Numbered from the stretch's first letter, positions 30,133 through 34,824 are shown. The stretch is DNA of 64,000 bases from Promethearchaeota archaeon Loki_b32 (GCA_005223125.1 NJBH01000001.1:96001-160000); one strand, 5' to 3'. Translations and numbers: made by a program. Notes: generated from the letters alone by a model not told the origin.

Positions 30133-31026
30133 TTGTACTTGAGAGAGTGTATAATGCAACTATTTAACATTAGTGATAAGGGAGAATTAATAAAGATAGA
30201 TAAGTTAAATTTTGAGGAAGATGATGTTTATCTTGTTGACGATGGGGAAAAGAATACGATTTATATTTGGGTTGGATTGAAAGTACCTCAGAATAAAAAA
30301 GACATTACTGCCGACATTGCAAGAAAATTGGATAAAGAACGAGGTGGATCTGCTAAAATTCTCATAATGAAACAAAAAAGAGAATATGGTTCTTTTTTAG
30401 CGATGATGCATGATCTTAAAAAGGGATTGATACCGGGTAAAACTATTGAACGAAGACCAGAATTCGTGTTTGAAATACCTCCCGAAAGTATCAAATCTAT
30501 AGGACTTGATGGAACTCCAGAAGAGAGAGAAATCAAGATTGAAACAAGAATAGGACAATGGCTTCAGCAAATTAAAGATTATAGAAGGGTTGAACCACAA
30601 AAAAAACTGCAAGAAACTTCAGATGCTGTAAAATTCATTAAGTTTAAAGAATCTCCAGATAAAGTAGAAGTAAATGGTAAATCAGAATTAGAAGCACGGT
30701 TAAAACAAACTGAAGAACGTAGAAAACTTGAACCTGAAGTTGTAGAGTTAAAGCCAGAAGAGCCTGACTTAAAAACACAAGTCAAAGAAACTGCATATTA
30801 CTTATCACTGGATAGATACTCATACAATGAATTGTGTTGGATGTTGGCTGAAAAAATCCAGAAAATGAACATTGATATGCCATCAATCGCAGATATAAAA
30901 AAAAAAGCGGAAGAAGTCTTCAATTCAAGCTGTACATATGATGAACTCTGTTGGTTAAATGCAGAAATGGATATATTGATCGAAAAAAGCTTTCTCGAAA
31001 AGGAAAAGAAGGAATTTAATTATTAA
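30133..31026 (+). CDS. Gelsolin-domain protein with C-terminal helical 'domain X' (1DGelX-type architecture; likely start ATG at 30154)
   Basis: Gelsolin repeat signature DDVYLVD...IYIWVG...ARKLD.ER.G...Q..E...F, followed by a twice-repeated AYY/AEE...Y(N/D)ELCW..AE motif. Confidence 0.82.
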   Translation: MYLRECIMQLFNISDKGELIKIDKLNFEEDDVYLVDDGEKNTIYIWVGLKVPQNKKDITADIARKLDKERGGSAKILIMKQKREYGSFLAMMHDLKKGLIPGKTIERRPEFVFEIPPESIKSIGLDGTPEEREIKIETRIGQWLQQIKDYRRVEPQKKLQETSDAVKFIKFKESPDKVEVNGKSELEARLKQTEERRKLEPEVVELKPEEPDLKTQVKETAYYLSLDRYSYNELCWMLAEKIQKMNIDMPSIADIKKKAEEVFNSSCTYDELCWLNAEMDILIEKSFLEKEKKEFNY

Positions 31027-31056: not shown

Positions 31057-31362
31057 TTATCCACAACAACTATTGTTTTGAGGATTTTTAGCAACATATC
31101 GTGCATTCCATAAACATCCACATCCTTTTTTCTCTTGTAAAACAATTGCCATTGTTGGACAATTTCGTTTGCAAGCAGAACATTCTGTACAGCGTTCTGC
31201 TTCATAAATTTCGTATGTTCCGCCATCATTTTGTATAGGGATTCCAAATGGGCATACCTCACCACATATCCCACACCCTGTGCATAAATCAGGATTGATG
31301 AAAATTTTAGGAATGACTACTGACATCCTTATTTCTGTGGTTTTTGACGCTATTTTTACCAC
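31057..31362 (-). CDS. hgcB: HgcB-like 2[4Fe-4S] ferredoxin
   Basis: CTGCGICGEVCP and CTECSACKRNCP, then GCGC and a C-terminal vicinal CC (SCCG); lies directly downstream of the hgcA-like gene. Confidence 0.8.
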   Translation of the reverse strand: MVKIASKTTEIRMSVVIPKIFINPDLCTGCGICGEVCPFGIPIQNDGGTYEIYEAERCTECSACKRNCPTMAIVLQEKKGCGCLWNARYVAKNPQNNSCCG

Positions 31363-31419
31363 CTCATTTTTATTCTCTTATTTAATAATAGTTTTTATTC
31401 TTATTTATTTTATTTTTTT

Positions 31420-33108
31420 CTAAAATATTAGGTAAAAAATAATACCTATAGCTAAGGTTATTAGGCTAATTATCAATACAATCATATTGATTTTACTAAA
31501 ACTGGGATATTCATCTTGGATTTCACTTGGACTTGTTGCCATAGTATATCCACTATATGACATTGTAGAGAAGAATGCTAACCAAAAGTAAAAGCAAGAG
31601 CTCAACAGAAGAAAGGGTATTGACCCATGAAAAAGCCAAGAAACACTACTTAATAGGAAAACATTAATAGTACCATAAATTAACCCTTTTGTAATAAATT
31701 TGCGAGTGAAATTAGTGATAGGAAAGATTACCATTATTATTGCATTTGTTATTATAATCCAGAGCCAGATCTCACCCACTAACCACAATTTGTTCATATC
31801 TATAGTGTTAAAGAGAGCTAAACCGAGTAAAATTAAAAATAATACAAAACTTGGCATTAAAAATATTTTTCGTATTAAAAAAGTTGTATGCGTTATTGCT
31901 GCTCTTAAACGATGAGAGGCAGTAAATTTTGCCAATTTCATTTTGTCGGTTTTTCTAGCAGGTCTTTCTTTTAAGAACTTGGGCAAATGTTTTGCCCATA
32001 TAGGACCATATAAAACATTAAAAGGAAAGTCAGGAGCCTCACTTTTTAATACTGGTACTGCTATTCCTCCTGCAGCAAGTTGAGGTAAAATTATAGTTTT
32101 CTTTTTCGTAATTTTAGCAATACCCGTAGCTCCTACCGCTTCTATTAATTGTTTGTTCCCAAAATTATCTCCCCGTGCTGCACACCATACATTTATACCT
32201 TTAGAATCAACACATAATACCCAAGCATCTATTCCTTTAAGAGAACGCATAACTTTAATATATGTATAAAGATAATTAGCAGTTACTATAATAGGAGACT
32301 TTTCATCAGGTGTTCCAGATTGATAAATGCCTGGTTCAATTGGTACGTGATCTACTTGTCCTGTAAAAATACAGCGATAGATGCTCATTTGAGATCTAAA
32401 TCCTTTAAATTTTCTAAGACTAGGGCGGTAGTATCCTGGTTCTTTTAAATTTTCATCCTCTACCTTTTTTAATTCAATTACTTGAATAGATCCATGACTC
32501 CATTTTTTTTCTGCTACCATCTTAAAACCTATAGGTTCTAAATAATTGAAAAACCACTTTACTAGAAAAGTACTTTCTAATCGTAGTCTTCTTAATTTTT
32601 TTCTGTACCTCCACCGCTTTATGTTAAATAAAATTTTCCAAATACCTGAAGGAACAAATTCAGCTGCTAAAATCATCCGACCATTCGGTTTCAAAGTTTT
32701 CCATGCATTTCTTAGAAAGACCTGTTGTTCAAATGGCCTAAGTTCTGAAAGCATAAAAGTACTAACAATTAGATCTTTAGAACTATCTTCTACGGGTAGA
32801 TCGCTGATGGAACCTATTTGATATAGAAGTTTTGTACGTTCTTCAGAAGGATAATTTTTCATGGCAGTATTTATCATTTGTAAGTTTTTATCTATTGCAA
32901 GAACATTATTTCCTTTTAAAGCCATTTTTTTAGCAAGAGTTCCTGTCCCACATCCTACTTCTAAGATAATCTGTGGTGCTTTTATCCTTTCTAGTACCCA
33001 ATCATGAACTTTGATATTTGTACCTTTAGTAAGTGCTGTGAATTTTGATTCATATGTTTCTGGTTCTAATTCCAACTTTCTCATATAGACTACAGCGATT
33101 TTAATCAC
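31420..33108 (-). CDS. hgcA: Class I SAM methyltransferase fused to an HgcA-like corrinoid-binding + transmembrane protein
   Basis: The N-terminal ~215 aa have ILEVGCGTG, IVSTFMLSEL and LKPNG. They are followed by PGIY..G.PDEKSPIIVTANY, cap helix GINVWCAARG, LPQLAAGG and YGPI.A..LP.FL. The C-terminal TM bundle ends in MSYSGYTMATSPSEI, like HgcA MNFTG.T..TS.SGV. Confidence 0.82.
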   Translation of the reverse strand: MIKIAVVYMRKLELEPETYESKFTALTKGTNIKVHDWVLERIKAPQIILEVGCGTGTLAKKMALKGNNVLAIDKNLQMINTAMKNYPSEERTKLLYQIGSISDLPVEDSSKDLIVSTFMLSELRPFEQQVFLRNAWKTLKPNGRMILAAEFVPSGIWKILFNIKRWRYRKKLRRLRLESTFLVKWFFNYLEPIGFKMVAEKKWSHGSIQVIELKKVEDENLKEPGYYRPSLRKFKGFRSQMSIYRCIFTGQVDHVPIEPGIYQSGTPDEKSPIIVTANYLYTYIKVMRSLKGIDAWVLCVDSKGINVWCAARGDNFGNKQLIEAVGATGIAKITKKKTIILPQLAAGGIAVPVLKSEAPDFPFNVLYGPIWAKHLPKFLKERPARKTDKMKLAKFTASHRLRAAITHTTFLIRKIFLMPSFVLFLILLGLALFNTIDMNKLWLVGEIWLWIIITNAIIMVIFPITNFTRKFITKGLIYGTINVFLLSSVSWLFHGSIPFLLLSSCFYFWLAFFSTMSYSGYTMATSPSEIQDEYPSFSKINMIVLIISLITLAIGIIFYLIF

Positions 33109-33202: not shown

Positions 33203-33238
33203 CTTTAACAACAACCTTCTTTTGATTCCTCATCATCA
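33203..33238. repeat. 36-bp direct repeat, copy 1 (encodes DDEESKEGCC-stop on the minus strand)
   Basis: ctttaacaacaaccttcttttgattcctcatcatca is 35/36 identical to 34090..34125. Confidence 0.9.
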
Positions 33239-33326
33239 TGTTAATATTTATCTCTTCTTTTTGGGGGGATTCAAAATTCAGTGAAATAACCTCATAAAGT
33301 AATTTAGGCAATTTATTAATAATTGT

Positions 33327-33914
33327 TTATTTCTGAAGCAGTTTTGTTGCATTTAGAATGTTAAATCCAAGAATTTCTGCTTGTTTTAACTGGTTTTCTT
33401 GGTTTAAAATATCGCCTGGTTTGTCAGCTACAGCTTTTACCCCAAATAAATCACCTGGAACACATATAATTCCACATGAGAGCATCCATGTATAAATGGC
33501 ATTAAGTGTTATTGTTTGACCTCCCGTTGTTCCACCACCAACCGCAATAGCTCCACCTACTCTCCCTTCTAAAGGTTTTTCGACATCTACCGCAAAGTGT
33601 CTATCAAGTAAGGAGAGTAATTGAGCACTAACATTTAGGAAATAAACAGGACTTGAGATTATAATCGCATTACACCATCGAAACGCATCATAAATTCCTT
33701 GCATATCATCATTAATAACACAAGTACCCGTTTCCCTACATGAGTCGCAGGCATTACAAGGTTTAATTTCTAATTCGCTTAAAAGAAAAATTTTAACATT
33801 CCATCCATTATTTTCAAAAGGTTTTAGAGCATACCTTAAGAGGATTTCACTATTCCCTTTCTTCCTTGGAGTCCCTGATATACCAATAACATTCATTTTT
33901 TTTTTTGAACTCAA
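33327..33914 (-). CDS. Flavodoxin-like iron-sulfur flavoprotein (Isf / NADPH-dependent FMN reductase family)
   Basis: GTPRKKGNS, Isf Cys motif CNACDSC.....C, SPVYF. Confidence 0.88.
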   Translation of the reverse strand: MSSKKKMNVIGISGTPRKKGNSEILLRYALKPFENNGWNVKIFLLSELEIKPCNACDSCRETGTCVINDDMQGIYDAFRWCNAIIISSPVYFLNVSAQLLSLLDRHFAVDVEKPLEGRVGGAIAVGGGTTGGQTITLNAIYTWMLSCGIICVPGDLFGVKAVADKPGDILNQENQLKQAEILGFNILNATKLLQK

Positions 33915-34089
33915 TAATAATTTTGTTAATAGATTATTTTACAAATAATATTTTTTTGATTGCAGTTTTTCTACAAATTGTATTTACTAACTTTTGTATC
34001 CAATCTGTATTTTTTATTGAAATAAAACTGAAAAAAATAAAAATTTTGATCTTATAAATTTTAATATAACCTTAAAGTGAATTCTTTTA

Positions 34090-34125
34090 CTTTAACAACA
34101 CCCTTCTTTTGATTCCTCATCATCA
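34090..34125. repeat. 36-bp direct repeat, copy 2
   Basis: ctttaacaacacccttcttttgattcctcatcatca; the single mismatch to copy 1 is synonymous (GGG/GGT). Confidence 0.9.
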
Positions 34126-34169
34126 CTTTTTGTTTCTTCAGTACAACATTCTTTATCTTTATCTCCCAT
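34092..34169 (-). CDS. Unannotated 25-aa acidic Cys-Cys micropeptide (putative metal-binding)
   Basis: MGDKDKECCTEETKSDDEESKEGCC-stop, with a GAGGT SD 8 nt upstream and its own BRE/TATA plus palindromic operator. Confidence 0.7.
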   Translation of the reverse strand: MGDKDKECCTEETKSDDEESKEGCC

Positions 34170-34209: not shown

Positions 34210-34227
34210 TAGTTAGGTTCCTAACTA
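34210..34227. promoter_or_regulatory. Palindromic operator 1 (putative MarR site)
   Basis: TAGTTAGG-TT-CCTAACTA, abutting a minus-strand CGAAACA-TTTAAATA BRE/TATA-like element upstream of the micropeptide. Confidence 0.78.
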
Positions 34228-34299: not shown

Positions 34300-34764
34300 T
34301 TAGGGTTTTAGTGCGTTTAACAATTTTTGGAGTAATTCTCCCAATATTATGATCTCTTCTTGTTTAATTCCAGGACAACAACCGTTTACAATCGTTTCTA
34401 AAGGAGGGGTAACATTTTTTAAATCTTTCCCTTTTTTTGTAAGCTTAACGAAGAGACTTCTTCTATCGTGAGGATTCGATTCACGAGAGACTAATTTTTT
34501 CTTTTCCATTGTGTCTACCACACCTGTAATTGTAGATCTAGAACAATTACATGTCTCTGCTAAATCTTTAAATTGTTGACTATCAACGCTCCATAATTCC
34601 CTCAGAATGAAATGTTGAGTTGGTGTAAGCTCTAATTCTTGAATATTATCACGTTCCAATTTTTCGTATTTTTTGCTTAAAATATTTATAAGTTCAAAAA
34701 CATCAACAATCTCTTTGGGTTGACAGCAATTATTAGGGGATTCGGGGGTTTTATCTCTACTCAT
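34300..34764 (-). CDS. MarR-family transcriptional regulator with vicinal cysteine pairs
   Basis: LTPTQHFIL, SRSTITGVVDTMEKKKLV.R...DRRS..V.LT.KG. The Cys motifs are NNCCQ, CNC and GCCP. Confidence 0.92.
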   Translation of the reverse strand: MSRDKTPESPNNCCQPKEIVDVFELINILSKKYEKLERDNIQELELTPTQHFILRELWSVDSQQFKDLAETCNCSRSTITGVVDTMEKKKLVSRESNPHDRRSLFVKLTKKGKDLKNVTPPLETIVNGCCPGIKQEEIIILGELLQKLLNALKP

Positions 34765-34806: not shown

Positions 34807-34824
34807 TAGTTAGGTTCCTAACTA
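34807..34824. promoter_or_regulatory. Palindromic operator 2 (putative MarR autoregulatory site)
   Basis: Identical TAGTTAGG-TT-CCTAACTA, abutting a minus-strand TTTATATA box upstream of marR. Confidence 0.8.

Follow-up and report, generated by a model that had tools for sequence, protein, structure and literature searches.

The open reading frame (ORF) at 31420..33108 on the minus strand of the window, the whole 64,000 nt stretch of Promethearchaeota archaeon Loki_b32 DNA analysed, encodes a 562 aa fusion of a CpaM-like SAM methyltransferase with an HgcA-like corrinoid domain and transmembrane (TM) bundle. The fusion is widespread and a variant of a known CpaM/HgcA-like system; it is neither canonical HgcAB nor the missing methyl loader of canonical HgcAB. 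The association of the methyltransferase with corrinoid proteins was already known to NCBI curators, as the family name and GenBank annotation attest, and some fusions are already annotated as CpaM in GenBank. No paper describing the CpaM–corrinoid pairing turned up in the literature library searched, although the study of Asgard hgcA by Zhang et al. (2023) may mention the N-terminal methyltransferase. New here are the clean division that CpaM makes between canonical and non-canonical HgcA-like branches, and the arsenic context of the lineage with the cap motif NVWCAARG, to which the fusion belongs.

The ORF runs from a GTG start at 33108 to 31420 over 562 codons with no internal stops; translation may actually begin at Met9 (33084), which is invariant. 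A check of the reading frame bears out the preliminary description of a class I SAM methyltransferase, a corrinoid domain with a Cys-bearing cap helix and a TM bundle united in a single ORF, and both motifs that it named were recovered, ILEVGCGTG at 32967–32941 (aa 48–56) and NVWCAARG at 32193–32170. The junction between the methyltransferase and corrinoid domains is bridged by assembled contigs in three runs from three studies, and the contig comparison at the window locus revealed no indels inside the ORF among the matches listed. The best homologues, at least 120, share 65–97 % identity over 91–100 % of the length, and all contain both the methyltransferase and PF03599. An assembly artefact is ruled out by the junction-bridging contigs and these near-full-length homologues. 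AlphaFold models the fusion as a single confident unit (pLDDT 91.4, pTM 0.87), for which the top Foldseek match is the published HgcAB model 9a0b; a sequence search matched no solved HgcA-family structure to the fusion. The suggested Asgard origin is confirmed: the nearest loci are from Promethearchaeota, and Promethearchaeum syntrophicum MK-D1, a cultured member of the same order with a complete genome, has a fusion homologue at 55 % identity. A sigma-70 promoter and terminator scan of the window gave nothing above chance, and sigma-70 models are unsuited to archaea.

The methyltransferase domain (32467..33093, minus strand, aa 6–214) contains the SAM-binding motif I at 32941..32967. Its resemblance to corrinoid-protein-associated methyltransferases, proposed earlier, is upheld by a CpaM (NF043040) score of 135 bits against at most 48 for any other methyltransferase family. 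The score is below the CpaM cut-off of 180, which some other fusions of the NVWCAARG lineage exceed, and the window domain represents a divergent subfamily. The GxGxG motif is conserved and Asp73 is present in 71/71 orthologues; together with a dN/dS of about 0.07–0.12 in the orthologue alignment, this indicates that the domain is under purifying selection, with its SAM motifs intact across the 71 orthologues. A word-index search for stand-alone relatives returned mostly fragments of fusions. ArsM (NF008823) is likewise a class I SAM methyltransferase and is found in ars operons behind the same type of MarR. However, the window domain lacks the arsenic-binding Cys set of ArsM (its sole conserved Cys is the motif I Cys53), and ArsM uses no cobalamin. 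An ArsM-type methyltransferase was rejected because the score, 43 bits, is below the cut-off of 263 and because the window domain groups with CpaM, apart from ArsM, in a methyltransferase tree.

The corrinoid-binding domain (PF03599/CFeSP-like, 31909..32388, minus strand, aa 241–400) carries a variant cap helix, NVWCAARG (32170..32193, minus strand), with the putative cobalt ligand Cys309 encoded at 32184–32182. Cys309, the counterpart of the cap-helix Cys of canonical HgcA, is invariant in 71 orthologues, and NVWCAARG was found in 116 of the 120 top homologues; for the remaining four, the search pattern matched a different stretch first. The TM bundle that follows (31423..31908, minus strand) contains five hydrophobic segments within aa 408–562, in agreement with the helices of the AlphaFold model and with the approximately five C-terminal TM helices of canonical HgcA. 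Over aa 255–553, to which the HgcA match extends, the NCBIfam scores are 172.8 bits for the HgcAB-like fusion family NF043039 (cut-off 285) and 172 for HgcA, NF040863 (cut-off 275), with which canonical HgcA controls score 436 and 454 bits. The CdhE profile NF003195 gives only 69.8 bits against a cut-off of 306. CdhE/AcsC does share a homologous corrinoid-binding domain and, through AcsE, a dedicated methyltransferase as cobalt loader, but CdhE has no cap Cys and no TM domain, and its partner is a TIM-barrel folate/pterin methyltransferase. Identity with CdhE/AcsC is ruled out by the scores, by a 100/100 split of the whole HgcA family from CdhE in the corrinoid-domain tree and by the genome's own CdhE, which lies elsewhere, on contig C44.

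Within the same 65-row tree, the window protein falls outside a 100/100 clade of canonical NVWCAAGK proteins and also outside a 99/95 clade of the fused HgcAB type. It belongs to a third group, with the NVWCAARG cap, supported at 85/81 overall and at 96/90 for the two main Asgard subgroups within it; a larger quick tree gives the same picture. Asgard sequences were likewise placed outside the canonical subtree by Lin et al. 2023 (PMC10083202). AU tests on the base of the family (p 0.52 and 0.40) reject neither rooting. They are compatible with the window lineage as sister to canonical HgcA (p-AU 0.40) and with either order of events, loss of CpaM by canonical HgcA or its gain by the others. 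Thus, the earlier assignment of an HgcA-like corrinoid domain stands in that the domain is HgcA-like and not CdhE, but it lies outside the canonical clade and below the HgcA cut-off. By sequence and phylogeny it is neither CdhE nor canonical HgcA and belongs to a separate NVWCAARG lineage.

The ferredoxin gene (31057..31362, minus strand, 101 aa) starts 57 bases after the fusion ORF. It is, as described before, a 2[4Fe-4S] ferredoxin with a C-terminal CC: two CxxCxxCxxxC motifs (Cys27/30/33/37 and Cys58/61/64/68) are followed by Cys81 and Cys83, the GCGC segment, and by the terminal Cys99–Cys100. Cys81 lies 13 residues past the last cluster Cys, like Cys73 of HgcB from Pseudodesulfovibrio mercurii ND132, so that the HgcB arrangement of two cluster motifs, a Cys about 12–13 residues later and a C-terminal Cys is present. 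In ND132, Cys73 and the terminal cysteines of HgcB are required for activity and are thought to carry metal (PMC7305189). Ferredoxins of the NVWCAARG lineage have GCGC at the Cys73 position and nearly always the terminal CC. Among the loci compared, the extra cysteines are kept only in lineages with a split ferredoxin; the fused HgcAB and 72 aa ferredoxin paralogues examined are without a CC tail. HgcB (NF040864) is the best match of the window ferredoxin, yet at 52.8 bits it is below the cut-off of 99, and the motif is CTECSA instead of the C(M/I)ECGA of HgcB. Hence the proposed identification as HgcB holds for the metal-handling cysteines and falls short in motif and score. Convergent with hgcB is a gelsolin-domain protein gene (30133–31026), syntenic across the genus; it is one of the eukaryotic-signature genes of Asgard archaea and has no connection with the module.

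Whether the fused methyltransferase identifies a general methyl loader can be judged from where CpaM occurs. Anaerolineae carry both canonical and non-canonical HgcA-like genes and serve as a natural control. CpaM lies beside canonical hgcA at 0/16 loci; 11 of these 16 genomes are without CpaM, two have weak distant matches and three have CpaM elsewhere, in two cases at a second, non-canonical locus and in the third in a 529-codon frame. By contrast, a fused or immediately preceding CpaM occurs at 18/18 non-canonical Anaerolineae loci and at all Asgard non-canonical loci with upstream DNA. The survey of fused versus adjacent genes that had been proposed separated non-canonical from canonical loci with no exception in the sets examined. 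At least four fusion or fission changes map to the methyltransferase tree, which mirrors the subgroups of the corrinoid tree. The CpaM–corrinoid partnership within the non-canonical branches is tight.

The partnership also extends to a split pair in MK-D1, in which a second cassette (chromosome ~2,412,400–2,414,250) pairs a stand-alone CpaM with an HgcAB-like fusion gene immediately downstream. Each of the two exceeds its cut-off (HgcAB-like 372 bits), and there are no ars genes nearby. A single cultured organism therefore holds both architectures. Structure prediction for this paralogous pair gave a binding score of 0.39, the highest among the controls being 0.01, with at least 89 % of contacts shared between runs and a partner pLDDT of at least 80. 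Among solved pairs 58/80 reach the mark used, 7 of the 80 with a score of 0.60 or less; among mismatched pairs 2/110 reach it, both at 0.60 or less. The prediction lends weak support to binding, as passes this low are more often wrong unless binding was likely beforehand.

Canonical HgcAB needs no such partner. The purified protein binds SAM with a KD of 33 μM and is methylated at 0.15 per second without a third protein, and the route from SAM through Co(I) to Cys-on methylcobalamin has been demonstrated for it (PMC11588087). The preliminary description had taken the fusion for a Rosetta stone naming the enzyme that loads the methyl group in mercury-methylating HgcAB. This claim is not supported: because CpaM is missing from all 16 canonical loci and HgcAB takes SAM unaided, mercury methylation does not have its missing loader in CpaM, and the Rosetta-stone logic applies to the non-canonical branches only.

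It is accordingly improbable that the window encodes a bona fide mercury-methylating HgcAB whose fused methyltransferase is a general loader for HgcA. The likeness is real: a CFeSP-type domain with the cobalt-ligand Cys, five TM helices, a downstream ferredoxin with the Cys73 equivalent and terminal CC, a frequent link to ArsR, HgcAB as top structural match and a sister relation that the AU test leaves standing. Against it are the N-terminal methyltransferase, the separate clade, scores below both the HgcA (172 < 275) and HgcB (53 < 99) cut-offs, and the canonical loci and biochemistry above. The cap NVWCAARG departs from the canonical N(V/I)WC(A/S)(A/G/S)GK, and with CTECSA it falls outside the high-stringency hgcA/hgcB motif definitions of the consensus protocol (10.1101/2022.03.14.484253). 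Additionally, tested organisms with non-canonical fused HgcAB gave no methylmercury (PMC4646819).

Among the loci read, methyltransferase, corrinoid-TM and ferredoxin parts form one cassette in four architectures: a fused methyltransferase–corrinoid-TM protein with a separate ferredoxin, as in the window; a separate methyltransferase with a fused corrinoid-TM-ferredoxin, the named HgcAB-like family; all three genes separate; and all three fused. The fused HgcAB type was first described from Pyrococcus furiosus. It shares with the window the methyltransferase family, the order of parts and a non-canonical cap, but the fusion is reversed, with the window methyltransferase fused and the ferredoxin a separate gene. 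The window protein also belongs to a separate lineage and scores below both cut-offs of that type (173 < 285 and 135 < 180), and its lineage alone keeps the extra HgcB cysteines and has ties to ars genes. Triple fusions of 590–660 aa occur at seven loci (L065, L066, L072, L074, L110, L183 and L184), in several Asgard families and on metagenome contigs of bacterial appearance. Fusions are also found in bacteria, namely Anaerolineae and Ca. Abyssubacteria. The HgcA profile matches 227/400 Asgard genomes at E <= 1e-20, a count in which weak matches (about 1e-21 to 1e-26), probably CdhE, are included; one genome passes the HgcA cut-off. The strong matches are mostly 550–610-codon frames, and CpaM is present in 204 of the same 400 genomes. 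The sole canonical hgcA–hgcB pair among them (L070, G397:C110, 436 bits) may have been acquired by transfer or misbinned, the contamination being 9 %. A canonical HgcA from Anaerolineae lies inside a 556 aa ORF (L115:1495-3165, minus strand) with ~240 extra N-terminal residues, an extension that presumably resembles DUF169.

The neighbourhood of the fusion suggests regulation by thiol chemistry. A Cys-rich MarR regulator (34300..34764, minus strand) has CC near both ends and CxC in mid-protein. The palindrome TAGTTAG-N4-CTAACTA, a putative MarR operator, lies at 34210..34227 ahead of the run of peptide, fusion and hgcB, with a second copy at 34807..34824 upstream of marR, through which MarR may regulate itself. 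These two are the only exact copies of the 18 bp palindrome in the 4.1 Mb genome, and relatives have it in the same place; a wider regulon was rejected, there being no further copy genome-wide at up to one mismatch. Ahead of the fusion is a gene for an acidic 25 aa peptide bearing one CC pair close to either terminus (34092..34169, minus strand), kept in at least 13 related loci. Between them, an iron-sulfur flavoprotein/FMN reductase-like gene (PF03358, 33327..33914, minus strand) is part of a variable 887 bp insert, missing in related strains and present at the same place in some relatives. The insert is flanked by a 24 bp direct repeat (33215..33238, minus strand, and 34102–34125) that duplicates the end of the CC-peptide gene; the insert-free joint 33214–34102 is present in all four runs, and contigs from four studies are without the flavoprotein gene. 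No arsR or acr3 adjoins the fusion in the window. However, the closest paralogue of the MarR in the window genome (C37:117289-119894) is directly upstream of two tandem arsM, and one related locus, L185, has the order marR-arsM-DUF166-fusion-ferredoxin.

Across 76 NVWCAARG fusion loci, arsR, acr3 or arsM lies within 3.5 kb in 35 (ArsR with a CVCE motif 34, Acr3 18, ArsM 1) and the Cys-rich MarR, usually with the CC peptide, at 14, one of which is the arsM locus and has both; the profiles for ArsR and MarR derive from these fusion neighbours, a bias towards finding such regulators here, and the counts are not independent because the loci are related, about two being duplicates. At other CpaM loci such a neighbour was found in 1/37. 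In MK-D1 the genes run arsR (divergent), acr3, fusion, ferredoxin; the Acr3, encoded 48 bp upstream, scores over its cut-off. Directly before the fusion of a second Asgard class lies the gene for an unrelated ArsR; the ArsR proteins of the two classes share 22 % identity and are differently oriented. Among MarR repressors, Cys-bearing ones responsive to As(III)/Sb(III) have been described (10.1101/2021.08.12.456183), and methylcobalamin is able to methylate As(III) non-enzymatically (PMC6950371). The ars context of the orthologues is the strongest functional clue to the substrate, since three different thiol-based regulators point to arsenic. Many arsR-acr3-fusion loci also have two small genes after the ferredoxin (L159:7363-8141 and similar), one with a CACxW motif and no Pfam or NCBIfam match and the other possibly ubiquitin-like with no NCBIfam match; copies occur near acr3 genes on contigs C28 and C32 of the window genome.

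Several observations count against an arsenic or antimony acceptor. Neither ars genes nor MarR are nearby at 28/76 loci, canonical hgcAB is near ars genes too (3/12), the window genome already holds two ArsM, and deletion of hgcAB in ND132 caused no clear loss of As(III) resistance (10.1101/2022.10.17.512643). A role of the fusion as a stand-in for a missing ArsM is not supported by a hand count in family f1, in which ArsM is present in ~32/96 genomes with the fusion and 15/38 without.

The acceptor could instead be organic and membrane-associated, such as a lipid, a quinone-like carrier or a cofactor, with the ars neighbours reflecting co-regulation or stress islands. The methyltransferase fold resembles the phospholipid N-methyltransferase PmtA (TM-score 0.77 by target) and Coq5, and CpaM combines a hydrophobic helix with an N-terminal motif like that of UbiE/MenG. 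Other CpaM lineages are also without ars genes and extra HgcB cysteines, and the module is present in about half of Asgard genomes, often as two paralogues. Yet the NVWCAARG lineage has a basic helix in place of the hydrophobic one, and an organic acceptor leaves unexplained why this lineage alone combines the HgcB cysteines with three thiol-based regulators. Such an acceptor is unlikely for the window fusion; it may hold better for the fused HgcAB paralogues.

The best model retains from the preliminary description a self-contained path from SAM through a corrinoid to a metal(loid), as a two-polypeptide, metal(loid)-inducible relay at the membrane. We infer cobalamin binding, methyl transfer from the CpaM-type domain to cobalt, the direction of transfer and the substrate as follows. 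The HgcB-like ferredoxin would reduce the corrinoid to Co(I), and the fused domain would bind SAM and pass its methyl group to Co(I), yielding Cys-on methylcob(III)alamin. Through its GCGC and terminal CC the ferredoxin would deliver a soft metal(loid) bound to thiols, which would then accept the methyl group as a radical or carbanion. In the NVWCAARG lineage the acceptor would most likely be trivalent arsenic or antimony (or a thio or organo form); such metalloids are likelier than mercury because the lineage is a separate branch, often among arsenic-resistance genes. The module would serve detoxification together with Acr3 export, with mercury methylation at most a side reaction. By converting the methyl cation of SAM into a radical or carbanion donor, the relay could reach electrophilic acceptors beyond direct attack by ArsM, which may be why fusion and ArsM are both kept. 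On the genomic evidence the methyl relay itself, leaving the acceptor aside, is probable; with an As/Sb-type acceptor, belief and doubt are evenly balanced.

Part of the remaining doubt concerns the direction of the chemistry. The corrinoid–ferredoxin core might perform reductive or reverse reactions, such as dehalogenation or organometalloid demethylation, with the methyltransferase only occasionally reactivating cobalamin at the expense of SAM. SAM-dependent reactivation of oxidised corrinoid enzymes is established, as in methionine synthase, and flavoprotein and thioredoxin/DsbD-like genes are found at some loci. Dechlorination of CCl4 by canonical HgcAB has been reported in a preprint (10.64898/2026.04.26.720869). 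However, a strict 1:1, repeatedly fused methyltransferase would better fit a role in every turnover, and the metal-handling cysteines with ArsR/MarR control indicate metal(loid)s rather than halomethanes, which makes this doubtful.

The native role of HgcA-family proteins has been a long-standing question because mercury methylation is co-metabolic. The NVWCAARG lineage brings together a donor-binding domain, a cobalamin carrier, an electron/thiol shuttle and a regulator hinting at the substrate in one module, which MK-D1, an Asgard archaeon in culture, carries directly behind acr3. HgcAB can be expressed in E. coli (PMC11588087), which makes the question of native role testable. Since about half of the 400 Asgard genomes hold HgcA-like genes and one is over the cut-off, counts of mercury methylators may be wrong; surveys could use a CpaM next to or fused with the HgcA-like gene as a simple marker, which told non-canonical from canonical loci in every case in the sets examined. 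More tentatively, and with the balance leaning against it, the lineage may be a cobalamin-dependent, ArsM-independent As/Sb methyltransferase in a family that was ancestrally a SAM–CpaM–corrinoid relay, from which HgcAB would have arisen by loss of the methyltransferase partner.
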